10,854 bases of DNA. Origin: a virus. Below are positions 3,727 to 10,854 of the stretch, piece by piece. The notes beneath the pieces were generated by a model, which was not told the origin of the DNA, did not search any database, and was given only the letters and a program-made list of their open reading frames with translations. Position numbers and translations under genes: made by a program. The stretch's first letter is position 1; every line of letters begins with the position of its first letter. The DNA is taken from UHGV virus genome UHGV-0113369. One strand, 5' to 3'.

Positions 3727-4668
3727 TCACCCCCTGAATCCTGCCGGGATCTGGCTGTAGTCCACGTTGTCGTAACTGGATTTGAAGTACGGATCTTCAC
3801 GTTTTTCTGTGTATGTGCTGACGGACGGCGATAAGCGCAGGGAAAGCTCATCCCATTTTTCCCGCAGCTTCGACGGGCTGAGCACGTTACGGCACCAGAA
3901 CGGATCGCGGCTGACGCGGCTGTACATCTCGCAGATTTGTTTGTGAGTACGACCATCCTGCACACACATCAGGCGAATTTCGTTTGCCCAGGCTGTCCAG
4001 TTCGGTTCTTTGGGACGAACCACCTCGCCGTCACATTCGGCAGCCTGCTCGTACAGGGCGATGATTTTTTTCCAGAGCCACTGTGCGCAGGTCAAATCAT
4101 CCTGCGTTCCCCACTGGCGCTTTTTAGGGCTGAATACAACCGCATCAGGATGGCGAGTTAAAAAATCCTGTTCAGCCGTCTGCGTGTCCGGTTGCGAAGC
4201 GTCCGGACGAGAAGGTTTTTTATCTGACGGTTCATGTTTTGATTTTACTGACGGATCCCCGCCAGATTCTGACGGGTGAAAACCCGCTTTTTTGCCAGAT
4301 TTCGACGCATCAAATTTTGACGGGTCAGATTTTGATGCGTCAGATTTTGACGGGTCAGAATCTGACAGTTGAGAAAATGCCGCTGCCTGAAGCTTCGCAA
4401 CGTTAAGCTGATAAACATTCGACGCATTGCGGTTACCCTGGCGACGCGCCTTACGCGTTAACCAGCCTTCTGCTTCCAGCCGTGCGATAGCCGTTCTGAC
4501 GGTACTCATCCCCGCGCCAATCTGACGGGCAATGGTTTCAATTGATGGCCAGCACACACCTTCGTCATTACTGAAATCAGCCAGGCGGGCCATAATTGCC
4601 ACGCTGGATAATTTCATGCCTGACGCAGCGCAACCATCCCATACATAGCCGGTTAATTTAGTGCTCAT
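3727..4668 (-). CDS. Phage replication initiation protein (N-terminal HTH, lambda O-like role) with internal pentapeptide repeats
   Basis: 313-aa ORF. N-terminal 90 aa look like a winged-helix/HTH replication-initiator domain. Central low-complexity repeat DPSKS/DASKS/DPSKF/DASKS is encoded by a 15-bp tandem DNA repeat. RBS GAGG 6 nt upstream of ATG 4668. Confidence 0.7.
   Translation of the reverse strand: MSTKLTGYVWDGCAASGMKLSSVAIMARLADFSNDEGVCWPSIETIARQIGAGMSTVRTAIARLEAEGWLTRKARRQGNRNASNVYQLNVAKLQAAAFSQLSDSDPSKSDASKSDPSKFDASKSGKKAGFHPSESGGDPSVKSKHEPSDKKPSRPDASQPDTQTAEQDFLTRHPDAVVFSPKKRQWGTQDDLTCAQWLWKKIIALYEQAAECDGEVVRPKEPNWTAWANEIRLMCVQDGRTHKQICEMYSRVSRDPFWCRNVLSPSKLREKWDELSLRLSPSVSTYTEKREDPYFKSSYDNVDYSQIPAGFRG
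4220..4368. repeat. Iteron array (candidate origin of replication) inside the initiator gene
   Basis: Four to five contiguous 15-bp units YCAGATTTTGACGGG at 4295-4368, another copy at 4262-4276, and degenerate copies near 4222-4254 (TATCTGACGG, TTTTACTGACGG). This parallels lambda ori iterons lying within gene O. Confidence 0.6.
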
Positions 4669-5834: not shown

Positions 5835-5931
5835 ATGCCCTCCAAACTAAGTTTTATTAGATGTTAATTATCAATCTATCTTAGGTCAATAAAAACTAAG
5901 ATTACTTAGTAATTAAAGAAATGGTGCTCCT
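5835..5931. promoter_or_regulatory. Immunity-region OR: divergent pR/pRM promoters with AACTAAG-type operator palindromes
   Basis: AT-rich 97-bp spacer between divergent cro-like and cI genes. 11-bp palindrome AAACTAAGTTT at 5844-5854 and 16-bp palindrome ACTAAGATTACTTAGT at 5895-5910. Candidate pR on the minus strand: -35 TTGACC (5889-5884), 17-bp spacer, -10 TAACAT (5866-5861). Confidence 0.55.
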
Positions 5932-6576: not shown

Positions 6577-6613
6577 AAAACACCGAACTAAGAAAAGTTT
6601 GGTGTTTTCTCTT
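6577..6613 (+). terminator. Putative intrinsic terminator downstream of cI
   Basis: Stem AAAACACCGAAC (6577-6588) pairs with GTTTGGTGTTTT (6597-6608) including one G-U; 8-nt loop; followed by TTTTCTCTT. Stem is A/U-rich so strength is uncertain; it may instead be part of the OL operator region. Confidence 0.4.
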
Positions 6614-6640
6614 GCCATTAAAACTAAGTTAAGTTAGATT
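6612..6640 (+). promoter_or_regulatory. Candidate pL-like promoter overlapping an OL-like operator
   Basis: -35 TTGCCA (6612-6617), 17-bp spacer, -10 TAGATT (6635-6640). The spacer and -10 contain AAACTAAGTTAAGTTAG, the same AACTAAG motif seen in the cI-cro intergenic operators. Confidence 0.35.
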
Positions 6641-6742
6641 TTATATCAAAGATAACGAACAGGTAGGACGCCCACGAAGTAGCCGCCGGTGGCGTATGAA
6701 TGACCGGATGATTCGTTAAATACTATGTGTAAGAGAGCGCAA

Positions 6743-6946
6743 ATGAACCGTTATTTCACATGCTCGTTTTGTGGCGCAAACGAGCTGCAGGCAAAAAAAA
6801 TCATCGCCAAAGGCGGAAAAGATGAAGTTGCTATCTGCTCTGAGTGCGTAGTCTTGTGTGTCGGGGCATTAATCGATATCAGCACAACTATTCAGTTCAC
6901 ACCAAATGAGAATGCGCCTTTAGATGCGCGGAAATCTGGAGGTTAA
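6743..6946 (+). CDS. Free-standing ClpX-type C4 zinc-finger (ClpX N-terminal ZBD-like) small protein
   Basis: 67 aa from ATG 6743 (RBS AAGAGAG 5 nt upstream). CSFCG...KIIAKGG...ICSECVVLC aligns by eye with the E. coli ClpX N-terminal zinc-binding domain ([30 protein letters not shown]). No AAA+ ATPase domain follows. Confidence 0.6.
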   Translation: MNRYFTCSFCGANELQAKKIIAKGGKDEVAICSECVVLCVGALIDISTTIQFTPNENAPLDARKSGG

Positions 6947-6954
6947 AGAACAAA

Positions 6955-7230
6955 ATGAAAGTCCAGATTTTAAACAATAGTGGTGAAGTCGTTTGGTCAT
7001 ACGACATAGCCGCTACTGTAGATCAGAGCGGCGATAGCTGGACCAATGGGAAACATCAGATTATGGCTGGAGTTGTGTTCTCTTTACGCCGTGCTTTAGA
7101 ACAGGCTGAAGTCTTTCCATCAGACCCTGAATGGAAATGGCCTTTTTCTATTTGTCCAAATTCGGAGAGTACATTTCAGAAAATTGGTCAGAAAGTCGCA
7201 CTCGAAGAGCATCAGCCAACTGTTTCCTGA
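6955..7230 (+). CDS. Hypothetical protein (91 aa)
   Basis: ORF with GGAGG 11 nt upstream of ATG 6955. No recognisable motif. The last ~27 codons overlap the convergent 81-aa gene, so the true 3' end is uncertain. Confidence 0.4.
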   Translation: MKVQILNNSGEVVWSYDIAATVDQSGDSWTNGKHQIMAGVVFSLRRALEQAEVFPSDPEWKWPFSICPNSESTFQKIGQKVALEEHQPTVS

Positions 7231-7393
7231 TTTTTTCAGGTAACTCGTCGGCATCGCAGAAACAACAACGCTCGATCATGTTGAAAGCTGATTCGTAGAA
7301 CTGTTTTTGCTGAGTGTCGCTGAGACAGGAAAAGAGCGACGTTACGATGATTTTATTAATTGCATTATCAAGTTCTTTTTCATCAAAAGTCAT
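7148..7393 (-). CDS. Hypothetical protein (81 aa), convergent to neighbours
   Basis: ORF with good RBS (AAAAGGAAAA, 7-8 nt spacing) before ATG 7393. Acidic/helical-looking sequence with a CCFC motif. Opposite orientation to the surrounding plus-strand genes. Confidence 0.5.
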   Translation of the reverse strand: MTFDEKELDNAINKIIVTSLFSCLSDTQQKQFYESAFNMIERCCFCDADELPEKIRKQLADALRVRLSDQFSEMYSPNLDK

Positions 7394-7646
7394 TTGATTT
7401 TCCTTTTATGTATACGGGCTTAAAAGGATACCACCGAGCCTGAAGTGGTGAAAAGACAGGCACATAACAGCTAAGTATTTTCAACCAGAGAGAATCCTTA
7501 GCGTTGTGGTGAATGCGGCTCAGCGCACGCGGGTTAAGGTTGAGGCTGACAGTCGACCTTCTGTGGATACCCACCCGCCTGGTGTGCAACCTTCGCCAGG
7601 CACCGGGAGGCACCCGGCACCACAACTTTATGCTGTGTGTAGTCTT

Positions 7647-7693
7647 GGCGGTACCAGCTTGTACCCTTGCTTCCGGCTGGTACCGTCCTTTTT
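7647..7693 (+). terminator. Intrinsic terminator-like hairpin in the leader upstream of the yfdP-like gene
   Basis: Perfect 10-bp stem CGGTACCAGC (7649-7658) / GCTGGTACCG (7676-7685), extendable by G-C and G-U pairs, loop ~15 nt, followed 3 nt later by TTTTT (7689-7693). Confidence 0.5.
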
Positions 7694-7782
7694 ACAAAAC
7701 AGAGAAGAGCATCACCGGACGACGGGCTCATAACCCAATCCATCCGGGCGGCAGTCACCGCAGGTGTTCTTCTCTGTTTTGT
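7694..7782. repeat. 20-bp imperfect inverted repeat pair flanking 49 bp
   Basis: ACAAAACAGAGAAGAGCATC (7694-7713) is the reverse complement of GGTGTTCTTCTCTGTTTTGT (7763-7782) apart from two G-T positions. The enclosed segment is GC-rich. Confidence 0.55.
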
Positions 7783-7830
7783 GGAGAAACTAACCGACCT
7801 TGCAGGGTCGATATGATGAGGAGCAGCAAA

Positions 7831-8193
7831 ATGGCTAGCGAACGCAGTACTGATGTGCAGGCATTTATCGGGGAGCTGGACGGCGGCGTATTTGAAACCA
7901 AAATCGGCGCAGTTCTCAGTGAAGTCGCTTCCGGTGTGATGAACACGAAAACCAAAGGTAAGGTCTCGCTCAACCTGGAAATCGAACCGTTTGATGAGAA
8001 CCGAGTGAAAATCAAACACAAACTCTCATATGTTCGCCCGACTAACCGCGGGAAAATTTCCGAAGAAGACACCACCGAAACGCCGATGTATGTCAATCGC
8101 GGTGGTCGCCTGACTATTCTGCAGGAAGACCAGGGACAGTTACTGACTCTTGCCGGTGAACCTGACGGAAAACTCCGCGCAGCAGGTCGTTAA
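7831..8193 (+). CDS. yfdP: YfdP-like prophage protein (120 aa)
   Basis: RBS AGGAG 7 nt upstream of ATG 7831. Length (120 aa) and position immediately upstream of a yfdQ-like gene match my recollection of CPS-53 yfdP. Upstream in-frame ATGs at 7813/7816 lack an RBS. Confidence 0.5.
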   Translation: MASERSTDVQAFIGELDGGVFETKIGAVLSEVASGVMNTKTKGKVSLNLEIEPFDENRVKIKHKLSYVRPTNRGKISEEDTTETPMYVNRGGRLTILQEDQGQLLTLAGEPDGKLRAAGR

Positions 8194-8258
8194 TATCGTT
8201 TTTAATTAACTGATTATTTATCTCATCACTGAATATCTTTATATAGTGAGGACTTATT

Positions 8259-9083
8259 ATGTCTCAGAACTTAGACGCAACCGCAATTAATCAAATCCAT
8301 GCCCTTATTTCTGCTCAGGGTGTTAATGAAATTATCAGTAAGATTGGTGCCGATGCTGTGGCATTGCCTGAGAATTTCCGCATTCATGATCTGGAAAAAT
8401 TTAATTTAAATCGCTTCCGTTTCCGTGGTGCGCTTTCCACTGCCAGCATCGATGACTTTACCCGTTATTCTAAAGATCTTGCAGATGAAGGCACCCGCTG
8501 CTTTATCGATGCTGATAATATGCGTGCCGTCAGTGTGCTTAACCTGGGTACTATTGATGAACCAGGTCACGCAGATAACACCGCCACACTCAAACTGAAA
8601 AAGACAGCACCGTTCTCTGCTCTGTTGTCTGTTAACGGCGAGCGTAACTCCCAGAAGTCACTGGCAGAATGGATTGAAGACTGGGCCGACTATCTTGTGG
8701 GCTTTGATGCTAATGGTGACGCTATTCAGGCAACAAAAGCGGCTGCGGCGGTCCGTAAAATCACGATTGAAGCAAACCAGACCGCTGATTTTGAAGATAA
8801 TGACTTCAGCGGCAAACGCTCCCTGATGGAGTCTGTCGAAGCGAAGACCAAAGACATTATGCCAGTGGCATTTGAATTTAAATGCATTCCGTTTGAAGGT
8901 CTGAAAGAACGTCCGTTTAAATTACGCCTCAGCATTATCACTGGCGATCGTCCGGTACTGGTTCTGCGCATTATTCAGCTGGAGGCGGTGCAGGAAGAAA
9001 TGGCTAACGAATTTCGTGATCTGCTTGTTGAGAAATTCAAGGACAGCAAAGTAGAAACCTTTATTGGTACTTTCACCGCCTGA
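8259..9083 (+). CDS. yfdQ: YfdQ-like DUF2303 family protein (274 aa)
   Basis: 274-aa ORF with RBS GTGAGGA upstream. Length and gene order (before an HD-domain yfdR-like gene) match the CPS-53 yfdQ/yfdR arrangement as I recall it. Confidence 0.65.
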
Positions 9084-9095
9084 TTTCATTACTGC

Positions 9096-9117
9096 AAATG
9101 CCCCTGCGGGGGCATTT
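9096..9117 (+). other. GC-rich hairpin between yfdQ-like and yfdR-like genes (possible attenuator or mRNA-stabilising stem)
   Basis: AAATGCCCC (9096-9104) / GGGGCATTT (9109-9117) with 4-nt loop TGCG, then ATGG. No clean U-tract. Confidence 0.3.
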
Positions 9118-9210
9118 ATGGAAACGTAATTTACTCAATAATCGCCGGATGGTGAGGGATTCTTTTTACCAGAATTCAGCGCGGTGCAGCGCATATACGT
9201 GGAGAACAAA

Positions 9211-9747
9211 ATGTCATTTATTAAAACTTTTTCCGGGAAGCATTTTTATTATGACAGGATAAATAAAGATGACATCGTTATTAACGATATCGCGGTTTCC
9301 CTTTCAAATATCTGTCGCTTTGCAGGACATCTTTCACACTTCTACAGCGTCGCCCAACATGCGGTTCTTTGCAGCCAGCTGGTGCCGCAGGAATTTGCTT
9401 TTGAAGCGTTAATGCATGATGCAACAGAAGCGTATTGCCAGGACATTCCCGCACCACTGAAACGCCTTCTTCCTGACTATAAACGGATGGAAGAAAAAAT
9501 AGACGCCGTAATCCGTGAGAAATACGGGTTACCCCCGGTTATGAGTACGCCCGTGAAATATGCCGATCTCATCATGCTGGCAACCGAACGCCGCGATCTC
9601 GGGCTTGATGATGGCTCTTTCTGGCCTGTACTGGAAGGTATCCCGGCAACAGAGATGTTCAAAGTTATTCCACTGTCGCCAGGCCATGCCTATGGGATGT
9701 TTATGGAACGTTTTAACGAGTTATCGGAGTTACGCAAATGCGCATGA
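9211..9747 (+). CDS. yfdR: HD-domain 5'-deoxynucleotidase (YfdR-like, 178 aa)
   Basis: From ATG 9211 (RBS GGAGA). HD-domain metal-binding residues (H...LMHDATEAY...D). Length matches my recollection of E. coli YfdR. Confidence 0.7.
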   Translation: MSFIKTFSGKHFYYDRINKDDIVINDIAVSLSNICRFAGHLSHFYSVAQHAVLCSQLVPQEFAFEALMHDATEAYCQDIPAPLKRLLPDYKRMEEKIDAVIREKYGLPPVMSTPVKYADLIMLATERRDLGLDDGSFWPVLEGIPATEMFKVIPLSPGHAYGMFMERFNELSELRKCA

Positions 9748-10337
9748 ATGTTTTCGAAATGGAAGGGTTTCTTCGCGGGAAATGTGTACCGCGAGATCTG
9801 AAAGTGAACGAAACAAACGCTGAATATCTGGTGCGTAAATTTGCTGAAGCGGAGGCCAAGATTTCGGCTCTGTACGAAGACCACCAGAAAGCGATTGAGT
9901 CAATTAAGCAGGCTGATGCAGCTGTTAAGTTGGCACACGAGAAGTTTTCAGCACTGGCAGCGGAGAATGCTGGGCTGAATAAATTTATCGCACAGAGTTG
10001 CTACGTGTTTGATGGCGAGCAGGATGAAATATCTGATGCGTATATCTGCGCAACAGATGGAGGGATGCCGCAAACACCAGCCACCGATGCTTTCCTGGCT
10101 GAAGTGAAGACTGAAGCACGCAAGGAGGGCGCTTACTTTGTGGCGAACAGAATGCTGGCTGCCTGGGAAGCTGGTTTTATTGATGATACTGCGAAGAACG
10201 CCGCGGATATTGCCAGGATGATTATTACCTCTACTGAGTTTATGGCTAATGCGCCGGAAGGCGATTTTGACCGCTCATTCTCTGATGGCGTTCTAGAAGA
10301 TATCGCCGACCAGCTTCGCAAAGGAGGCAACCAGTGA
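9738..10337 (+). CDS. Hypothetical protein (199 aa; yfdS-like position)
   Basis: ORF whose start overlaps the yfdR-like stop (ATG 9738; GGAG 9 nt upstream). N-terminal region looks coiled-coil-like. No motif recognised. Confidence 0.45.
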   Translation: MRMNVFEMEGFLRGKCVPRDLKVNETNAEYLVRKFAEAEAKISALYEDHQKAIESIKQADAAVKLAHEKFSALAAENAGLNKFIAQSCYVFDGEQDEISDAYICATDGGMPQTPATDAFLAEVKTEARKEGAYFVANRMLAAWEAGFIDDTAKNAADIARMIITSTEFMANAPEGDFDRSFSDGVLEDIADQLRKGGNQ

Positions 10338-10633
10338 GTGTATATCTTATTGATAAACGTCGACGTGGGCAACAAATACCATCTGTTGGAATGCCGAATC
10401 ACACATGGTTTTGCGTACTTGATATCGATGGTATGGATGCGTTGGTTGACACTCGTCATTACTGCGATACCGCAACAGCTACTCCGGCGAAAGCAAAGAA
10501 AATGGCTGCTCTGATAGAAAACTGGACTCCACCTGATGGTTGGTGCAATGGGAATGATCGAGATTGGCATGAAAAAATGAAGGGCTATATCTGCGATTTC
10601 TTACGTAAATGCAACGGCTTCAGGGTGATGTGA
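10334..10633 (+). CDS. Hypothetical Cys-containing small protein (99 aa), GTG start
   Basis: Strong RBS AAGGAGG 6 nt upstream of GTG 10334, which overlaps the upstream TGA (GTGA). Several Cys/His residues (C..C, HYCD, WCNG) suggest possible metal binding. Confidence 0.45.
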   Translation: MSVYLIDKRRRGQQIPSVGMPNHTWFCVLDIDGMDALVDTRHYCDTATATPAKAKKMAALIENWTPPDGWCNGNDRDWHEKMKGYICDFLRKCNGFRVM

Positions 10634-10634
10634 T

Positions 10635-10854
10635 ATGACAAAAATTAACTATCAGGCACTGCGTGCTAAGGCAGAAAAAGCAACGTGTGGTGAGTGGTCG
10701 CTCGAATATGGAGAGAGCCGATTTGATGGTGATGATGCGCTAATTCATCGCGAGGCTGCTGGATATATTCCCATTTGCAGAATTGAAGGAGCGCATCCTG
10801 AAAGCGGTTTCGATGAAGATTTCCAAATGGAACAGCAGGCCAATGCTGAATTCA
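10635..10854 (+). CDS. Hypothetical protein, 5' fragment running off the window (possibly Ead/Ea22-like)
   Basis: ATG 10635 directly after the upstream stop. N-terminus MTKINYQALRAKAEKATCGEW resembles my recollection of Ea22-like early-left proteins. No stop within the window. Confidence 0.35.
   Translation, partial: MTKINYQALRAKAEKATCGEWSLEYGESRFDGDDALIHREAAGYIPICRIEGAHPESGFDEDFQMEQQANAEF

Follow-up and report, generated by a model that had tools for sequence, protein, structure and literature searches.

The yfdP-yfdQ-yfdR block of a lambdoid prophage and its conserved structured leader RNA

The genes yfdP, yfdQ and yfdR are best described from the prophage remnant CPS-53 (KpLE1) of Escherichia coli K-12, where they are followed by yfdS and yfdT, and from the functional temperate phages SfV (orf32-31-30) and ST64B (sb37-36-35), which carry them 3' of cI and 5' of xis/int. 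Noguchi & Katayama (2016) isolated yfdQRST as a multicopy suppressor of the over-initiation caused by hda-185 (PMC4776307). K-12 YfdR was found to bind domain I of DnaA at Phe46, competing moderately with DiaA and DnaB, multicopy yfdQ and yfdR together with either yfdS or yfdT blocked initiation at oriC, and extracts inhibited oriC replication in vitro (PMC4776307). Pointing to the SfV homologues, the authors proposed a role in phage growth analogous to that of lambda P (PMC4776307), and a 2025 eLife paper restated that YfdR is a prophage inhibitor competing with DnaB for DnaA domain I (PMC12122000). A 2025 study in Genome Research described yfdP and yfdQ as being without known function and unlikely to be recombination genes (PMC12315714), and a preprint reported that production of YfdQ triggers plaque formation by phage SW1 (bioRxiv 413146). 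Here we analyse the corresponding genes at positions 7831-10633 of the virus genome UHGV-0113369, together with the RNA in front of them; the whole stretch of 10,854 nucleotides is called the window throughout.

The gene block is already known and named, with one member partly characterized, and it is the conserved structured leader RNA that is new. We propose that the window holds the early-left (pL-side) yfdP-yfdQ-yfdR block of a lambdoid prophage of the SfV/ST64B/CPS-53 type, extended by mosaic cargo and probably acting on host DNA replication. For the action on DnaA and oriC we rely on the literature on K-12 proteins that are 98% identical to those of the window; gene identity, synteny, the intact HD site and the conserved structured leader were established here. 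An earlier reading of the window, made from the sequence alone and called the original prediction below, had considered the partners of the HD protein functionally undescribed. This comes near the truth for YfdP and YfdQ (PMC12315714), but for YfdR and its cluster a DnaA-oriC phenotype has been published (PMC4776307).

Identity and conservation of the gene block

All five open reading frames (ORFs) listed in the original prediction were found on the plus strand with their proposed boundaries, encoding proteins of 120 and 274 residues, an HD-domain protein, and proteins of 199 and 99 residues, the last one containing cysteines. Naming the first three after yfdP, yfdQ and yfdR was correct: the proteins were 98.3, 98.9 and 97.8% identical to those of K-12 CPS-53 (BLASTP against translated annotated records) and 97-99.6% identical to the products of SfV orf32, orf31 and orf30 (BLASTP). 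The HD protein is an orthologue of K-12 b2361, the identity extending over all 178 residues within the same synteny, and the order and spacing of yfdPQR are those of CPS-53. The DNA of SfV was 98.2% identical over window positions 7400-9841. Differences concerned the distal genes. The ORFs of 199 and 99 residues stand in the place of the K-12 YfdT and of YfdS beyond its first 45 residues, whereas SfV encodes YfdS and YfdT in orf29 and orf28 and ST64B carries others.

Profile searches, which had been suggested for each ORF together with the original prediction, placed two of the products above a gathering score. YfdQ belongs to DUF2303 (PF10065, 307.9 bits with a cut-off of 26.6, E = 6.9e-92, residues 7-272 aligned to profile positions 2-269 of 269) and to phrog_210 (E = 3.6e-120). 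The 99-residue protein is a DUF7739 member (PF24881, 73.6 bits with a gathering score of 27), 94% identical to the DUF7739 protein of the E. coli FDAARGOS_1257 prophage; it had no counterpart in K-12 or SfV and did not match K-12 YfdT. The HD protein gave sub-threshold Pfam matches only (YfbR-like and HD_3) and fell into phrog_318, 'deoxyribonucleoside 5' monophosphate phosphatase' (E = 3e-111); the other proteins of the window fell into PHROG families of unknown function. YfdP was assigned to the PF27127 family from its 98.3% identity to K-12 YfdP and from the 120 relatives listed, all 120 of which carry a precomputed PF27127. The similarity of the 199-residue protein to YfdS (89% identity) was limited to residues 1-45. 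No ORF scored above an NCBIfam cut-off.

The operon had been predicted to be tightly packed, with overlapping starts and stops. This holds for the last junctions only, where yfdR and the 199-residue ORF overlap by 10 nucleotides, this ORF and the 99-residue one by 4 nucleotides, and the next ORF follows 2 nucleotides further 3'; yfdP and yfdQ are separated by 65 nucleotides and yfdQ and yfdR by 127. Since this next ORF, Ead/Ea22-like in its sequence and annotated as ead/Ea22-like at the same position in related prophages, starts at 10635, the operon extends past 10633. All database annotations use ATG 9211 as the start of yfdR, and an in-frame GTG at 9184 would give a protein of 187 residues. 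The perfect hairpin in the yfdQ-yfdR spacer (Table 1), for which a terminator scan made no call, may act as a weak (bidirectional) terminator or as an mRNA-stabilizing element, lowering expression of yfdR relative to yfdPQ.

At the DNA level, part of the region 7400-10854 was matched in 3653 of 5426 complete E. coli genomes and in 266 phage records, and only 10 genomes covered at least 80% of it. Phage-wide homology typically stopped at about 9841, inside the 199-residue ORF. The first 45 codons of this ORF (9738-9872), which overlap the end of yfdR, are common to YfdS and to a 139-residue FDAARGOS_1257 protein, the proteins being otherwise unrelated. Such shared N-termini on unrelated proteins point to a mosaic recombination joint inside the gene, at about 9841-9872.

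Gene order was compared with one genome per species, in 80 loci with a YfdQ relative of 42-99% identity whose neighbours were searched by tblastn. A YfdP relative lay directly 5' of yfdQ in 79 of them, including loci of Marinobacter, Photobacterium, Vibrio and Kistimonas; the single exception was truncated by a contig end. YfdR relatives followed 3' in 59 loci. Relatives of the distal proteins were rare, with 6 loci for the 199-residue ORF, 6 for YfdS, 4 for YfdT and none for DUF7739. Co-conservation of all five genes, which the original prediction implied, was therefore observed for yfdP-yfdQ and to a large part for yfdR, but not for the two distal ORFs. Judged by gene order, yfdP and yfdQ form an obligate unit, joined often by yfdR as an accessory within Enterobacterales. 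The distal ORFs are mosaic cargo, the variability of which accounts for the lack of YfdT and of most of YfdS in the window.

In several distant loci devoid of yfdR, the gene next to the pair encoded SSB (Proteus, Kistimonas) or an Rv2179c-like 3'-5' exonuclease (Sodalis, Photobacterium), and one or the other was present 3' on the same strand in 32 of the 80 loci. These neighbours hint at a DNA-metabolism context for yfdP-yfdQ. One could go further and regard the pair, with or without YfdR, as an unrecognized recombination, repair or replication-restart module occupying the Rec-module slot of the early-left operon. The block indeed lies where lambdoid phages carry exo/bet/gam or erf/abc, and the strict pairing of the two genes, the adjacent SSB or exonuclease genes and the weak sensitivity of a yfdQ deletion to methyl methanesulfonate and H2O2 (cited in PMC4776307) would be in line with such a module. 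We nevertheless consider it unlikely, as neither YfdP nor YfdQ showed fold similarity to Rad52/Redbeta/Erf/RecT, to Gam or to any nuclease, and as phage ArgO145 carries the cluster beside a complete Rec module, the authors who noted this judging a recombination role unlikely (PMC12315714). The AlphaFold2 models used were of moderate confidence (pLDDT, the predicted local distance difference test, of 77.8 for YfdQ and 67.5 for YfdP). A Foldseek search of YfdQ against viral models (BFVD) returned only DUF2303 or uncharacterized phage proteins, one of them from a Gordonia phage.

The HD site of YfdR is intact. Residues H69, D70, E73, D78 and D119 were invariant in 53 distinct homologues (46-98% identical) and H50 was found in 52 of them, so that the HD motif, on which the original prediction depended, stood up to the comparison. 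H50, H69-D70 and D119 form the H...HD...D motif of the HD superfamily and align with those of the HD protein Atu1052 (2gz4), the closest solved structure (E = 2e-13). By this residue conservation the catalytic site is under purifying selection, and an enzymatic role was thus presumably retained beside any binding to DnaA. E. coli YfbR belongs to the same superfamily and shares the HDxxE...D catalytic signature, but this core is the only part of YfdR resembling it: YfdR scored below the curated YfbR-family cut-offs (24.2 vs 25.9 bits for PF12917, 19.8 vs 122 bits for NF003009) and had no phmmer match to YfbR structures. A weak nucleotidase activity of YfdR is reported, with nucleotide affinities said to lie far below YfbR's and a function described as elusive (PMC4776307, citing Zimmerman 2008).

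The question arises whether YfdR is mainly a deoxynucleoside monophosphate (dNMP) phosphatase that, to the advantage of the phage, remodels the deoxynucleotide pools of the host or eliminates nucleotides with a modification or a signalling role, with YfdP and YfdQ as unrelated neighbours. PHROG and RefSeq both name it a deoxyribonucleoside 5'-monophosphate phosphatase, the invariance of its metal and catalytic residues, HDxxE...D included, argues for selection on catalysis, and a 2024 paper cited a phosphatase activity of YfdR on cytidine monophosphate (CMP). In that paper, however, deletion of yfdR left the CMP yield unchanged (PMC10870394). The low nucleotide affinity makes a remodelling of pools, as put forward in the original prediction, the weaker reading, and with family scores below the YfbR cut-offs we regard this account as doubtful.

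The account we prefer, an action on host replication, sets YfdR beside the DnaA-targeting proteins lambda P, Bacillus subtilis SirA, Dps and DiaA. Functionally YfdR resembles a phage inhibitor of host initiation, and it binds the patch of domain I (Phe46) that is used by DiaA, DnaB and SirA-type regulators (PMC4776307). It differs from these proteins in having no sequence or domain relation to them, being an HD enzyme, and in needing co-expressed partners in vivo.

The leader RNA upstream of yfdP

The original prediction had placed a terminator and a structured leader (7647-7830) 5' of the operon. Predicted fold and conservation indicate that both are real, the first being terminator-like. The stretch 7630-7850 folds at -97 kcal/mol (z = -6.3), and none of 200 shuffles was as good. 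Hairpin 1 combines a GC-rich stem of 12-13 bp (7647-7687) with five consecutive U behind it (7689-7693); both the U-run and a GC-rich stem, the sequence of which varies, were kept in most of 24 aligned loci. A simple terminator scan missed it because of its 17-nucleotide loop. Many matches in E. coli and Stx phages begin at about window position 7645, indicating that hairpin 1 and everything 3' of it travel with yfdP. The U-tract doubles as the 5' end of the long helix downstream.

This downstream element is a three-way junction of 104 nucleotides (Table 1), the structure of which was conserved with covariation in an alignment of 24 species. RNAalifold predicted 41 pairs, 17 of them with compensatory changes. 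When pairs were counted, 97.2% of cells were paired as compared to 42-57% in slid controls, double-change pairs numbered 17 vs 3-7 in these controls, and none of 500 shuffles reached the observed values. A BLAST search of the leader against the 80 loci gave blocks of 88-93% nucleotide identity in genera where YfdQ is only 55-60% identical. Position and pairing of hairpin 3, with an NGCA loop, were kept in 24 of 24 loci, and helices 5-6 were 96-98% paired. A covariance model of the leader, R1, scored 85-121 bits on the plus strand in 34 sources as opposed to about 40 bits on the minus strand; both SfV (L001, 111.5 bits) and ST64B (L086, 84.8 bits) contain the leader, and weaker full-length matches were observed at the same site 5' of yfdP in Serratia, Yersinia, Proteus and Morganella. 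No Rfam family covers 7687-7790 in scans at gathering threshold or in permissive ones. For the whole window, Rfam at gathering threshold returned no family and ARAGORN no tRNA or tmRNA. An N-terminally extended YfdP, encoded by an in-frame ORF from 7513, was rejected because the upstream region shows RNA-type covariation and whole-hairpin insertions and deletions instead of codon conservation.

A long perfect RNA helix is the kind of substrate cut by RNase III. In our reading, the leader helix would be an RNase III-type processing site, and the element would gate expression once hairpin 1 has been read through.

The 14 nucleotides at the tip of hairpin A (CGGGCUCAUAACCC, 7723-7736) are the same as in the anticodon stem-loop of metY, an initiator tRNA of E. 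coli, the three G-C pairs included, and 17 of 19 nucleotides agree over a longer stretch. The outer stem of this hairpin covaries (CCGGA/UCCGG, CCAGG/CCUGG, CCGGG/CCCGG, UAGCGA/UCGCUA), and in some loci the loop carries CUCAUUC in place of CUCAUAA. The late-operon leader of Klebsiella phage RCIP0034 (L085 3009-3074) contains the inner module by itself, directly 3' of the Q gene and two tRNA genes (tRNA-Asn/tRNA-Arg). Pairing of the CUCAU loop with the yfdP start (AUGAG) was rejected, being found in only about 14 of the 24 loci and absent in the window. Somewhat speculatively, the leader may represent a type of phage RNA not described so far, with a role in cis regulation or in processing, in which an invariant hairpin mimicking the tRNA-fMet anticodon arm recruits a factor that recognizes tRNA (RNase P, RNase III, MetRS, the 30S P-site together with IF3, or an anticodon nuclease) and so gates the early-left operon; we hold this, along with a separate, new two-protein replication accessory of novel folds formed by YfdP-YfdQ, to be possible but less than probable.

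HD domains can hydrolyse signalling nucleotides, and early phage operons often carry anti-defence genes. With 14 nucleotides of the initiator tRNA anticodon arm copied in the leader hairpin, the block could be thought of as an anti-defence or superinfection system, in which YfdR degrades a defence signalling nucleotide or the tRNA-fMet-like hairpin serves as decoy for an anticodon nuclease. This appears very improbable to us. None of the five proteins had a match at E <= 0.01 in PADLOC-DB, a library of defence and not of anti-defence systems, neither experiments nor gene context revealed a link to such a system, and some loci have the CUCAUUC loop. Nothing was found that ties the module to defence or to the signalling nucleotides raised in the original prediction.

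When compared to described phage leaders, the element resembles the early leaders of lambdoid phages (lambda N leader/nutL, HK022 putL) in that a long structured RNA separates the early-left promoter from the first conserved gene. It differs from them in that there is one copy per prophage with no twin on the pR side, and in that no boxB-like hairpin was seen at nut spacing. A put-like antiterminator as in HK022 was rejected as far as R1 can see, the model having no match in the HK022 early regions (L087/L088, record 21000-33500, expected to hold both early operons). The tRNA-like features recall those of the phage leader RNAs P1 C4, P4 CI and STnc100/PasD. STnc100 (RF02076) is a prophage-associated small RNA family related to PasD, and in a permissive search of 481 nucleotides it matched in full length (1-206 of 206) with 43.4 bits (E = 3.2e-8), which is below the gathering score of 47; the similarity is restricted to the upstream part of the region, 7473-7696. 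At the Rfam gathering threshold, no STnc100 match was obtained near 11 other yfdQ loci. The ends of the STnc100-like core, GUGGUG...CACCAC, are tRNA-like, and a CCGGG-AGGCA-CCCGG hairpin lies beside the 3' strand; the core may have a promoter of its own (AAGACA-17-TATTTT, about 7456-7484). An antisense action of this core on the leader or on the yfdP ribosome-binding site, as in P1 C4 or P4 CI, found no support, the duplex energy being no better than that of shuffles.

Control region and prophage context

The early-left position in a lambdoid prophage was confirmed by the neighbouring genes, an immunity and replication region of the usual lambdoid kind. They encode a cI carrying an S24 peptidase domain, Cro, a CII-like protein and an O-like initiator; further neighbours are PerC/YfdN, a methyltransferase, RusA, KilA-N and DUF968. 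Copies of the motif ACTAAG-N5-TTAG were confined to the cro-cI spacer (5846-5860 and 5895-5910) and to 6623-6637, with 0.01 occurrences expected by chance. It is plausible that the spacer copies and the site at 6612-6640 are candidate OR/OL operators and a repressor-controlled pL. The predicted transcription unit would lead from pL through an ORF with a ClpX-type zinc finger and one of 91 residues into a 600-nucleotide non-coding stretch with the RNA elements, and from there into yfdP. The conditional expression assumed in the original prediction is well supported by this predicted anatomy.

The first ORF after the candidate pL (6725-6946, plus strand) lies where lambda carries N. Its 73-residue product contains a C4 zinc finger of the ClpX type (PF06689, E = 1.2e-10) and could serve as decoy or adaptor in proteolysis by ClpX. 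A putative 81-residue ORF on the minus strand (7148-7393) overlaps the end of the annotated 91-residue ORF (6955-7230, plus strand), and just upstream of this putative ORF a terminator-like hairpin on the minus strand (ACCACTTCAGGCTCGGTGGT with a T-run) was noted at 7430-7449.

The control region of K-12 is of a different kind. CPS-53 is a deletion remnant lacking the immunity region and the whole leader, and its homology to the window starts only 24 nucleotides 5' of the yfdP ATG (window 7812-7836 vs L003 9580-9610), for which reason K-12 cannot model this region. Repeats of 11 bp (TCAGATTTTGA) at a spacing of 15 nucleotides, five of them at 4295-4365 and another further away at 4262, sit in the window inside the O-like gene (3727-4668, minus strand) and are probably the iterons of the phage origin. 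The K-12 yfdO-yfdP spacer consists of the same O-gene iterons, which were published as boxes for the host regulator SrsR (YgfI). The reported regulation of the yfdPQ transcript by SrsR (PMC9181523) does not transfer to the window, because it was by deletion that these iterons came to lie beside yfdP.

This also bears on whether the block is a 'moron' set of benefit to the lysogen, expressed in the prophage state for host stress tolerance or for control of co-resident phages. Deletions in CPS-53 (whole prophage, yfdQ, yfdS) raise the sensitivity to H2O2 or acid (cited in PMC4776307), a SrsR-regulated yfdPQ transcript is detectable in K-12 (PMC9181523), and the effect of YfdQ production on SW1 plaques (bioRxiv 413146) could be read in the same sense. 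The K-12 arrangement is a deletion joint, however, and in intact prophages the block is preceded by a candidate repressor-controlled promoter, a hairpin resembling a terminator and a long leader, the arrangement of delayed-early lytic genes. We therefore regard a lysogen-benefit function as improbable.

Table 1. Features of the yfdP-yfdQ-yfdR block and its upstream region (window coordinates unless a locus is named)
Feature	Position	Strand	Remarks
Candidate pL	6612-6640	+	TTGCCA-17-TAGATT; just 3' of cI; putative pL function
Operator-like site ACTAAGTTAAGTTAG	6623-6637	+	over -10 of candidate pL
STnc100-like small RNA element	7473-7696	+	sub-threshold; 3' end is hairpin 1
Hairpin 1, intrinsic-terminator-like	7647-7693	+	stem GGCGGTACCAGC / GCTGGTACCGTC, 17-nucleotide loop, then UUUUU
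Three-way-junction leader RNA, 104 nucleotides	7687-7790	+	23-bp outer helix enclosing hairpins A and B
Outer helix	about 7688-7716 with 7763-7789	+	23 bp
Hairpin A	7715-7747	+	tip GGGCUCAUAACCC at 7724-7736
Hairpin B	7748-7761	+	variable
Hairpin 3, CGACCU-UGCA-GGGUCG	7795-7810	+	directly 5' of yfdP ribosome-binding site
yfdP ribosome-binding site GAGGAG	7818-7823	+	followed by yfdP ATG
yfdP	7831-8193	+	120 residues; obligate partner 5' of yfdQ
yfdQ	8259-9083	+	274 residues; DUF2303 family
Perfect 9-bp hairpin AAAUGCCCC-UGCG-GGGGCAUUU	9096-9117	+	yfdQ-yfdR spacer; read off the sequence
yfdR	9211-9747	+	HD-domain phosphohydrolase, orthologue of DnaA-binding YfdR; 178 residues from ATG
199-residue mosaic ORF	9738-10337	+	residues 1-45 match YfdS, remainder unrelated
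99-residue ORF	10334-10633	+	DUF7739, 5 Cys; variable cargo
Start of Ead/Ea22-like ORF	10635-10854	+	PF13935, E = 7.9e-7; runs past window end
SSB or exonuclease gene next to the pair, other loci	L065 6887-7384, L074 6914-7399, L024 6945-7562, L078 7086-7694

Proposed action on host replication

A possible course of events can be outlined from these data. In the lysogen the block would be silent, with cI repressing the candidate pL and hairpin 1 (7647-7693) stopping residual transcription. After induction, transcription would read through into the three-way-junction leader, the long double-stranded helix of which is probably processed, for example by RNase III, setting the stability or the translation of the yfdP message. 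The proteins would then act on host replication, YfdR as a DnaA-directed inhibitor and/or as a dNMP hydrolase and YfdP-YfdQ as an accessory of DNA replication or DNA metabolism, with the outcome that initiation on the host chromosome is held back while the phage replicates.

Several observations weigh against this account. The published phenotype needed multicopy genes and yfdS or yfdT besides yfdQ and yfdR; yfdQ and yfdR are present in the window, but YfdT had no match there and YfdS is represented by its residues 1-45 only. Deletion of yfdQRST was without effect in K-12, the authors allowing for an overexpression artefact, and yfdP was dispensable in the multicopy assay (PMC4776307), although no other gene was linked as tightly to yfdQ in our survey. 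YfdR was absent from all eight of the most distant yfdP-yfdQ loci, which implies that the core function of the pair is independent of it. YfdP and YfdQ gave no informative fold match to solved structures. The window yielded neither an N-like protein nor a further leader copy, and the promoter, terminator, antitermination and RNase III steps are predictions. Even so, the four alternatives weighed above are less well supported than the replication-directed account.

The block is among the most widespread sets of genes in enterobacterial prophages. Two of its three core proteins are without an assigned biochemical function, and the one member that has been studied targets the host replication initiator. 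With yfdP-yfdQ as the obligate unit and yfdR as an add-on, the pair is the starting point for experiments. All published work was done on the K-12 copy, a truncated remnant without the native leader and control, so intact prophages of the SfV or ST64B type are the right model. While the gene module itself is not novel, its strict yfdP-yfdQ pairing and its leader RNA merit follow-up, the covarying leader with its initiator-tRNA-like hairpin being a testable regulatory element physically coupled to the block.

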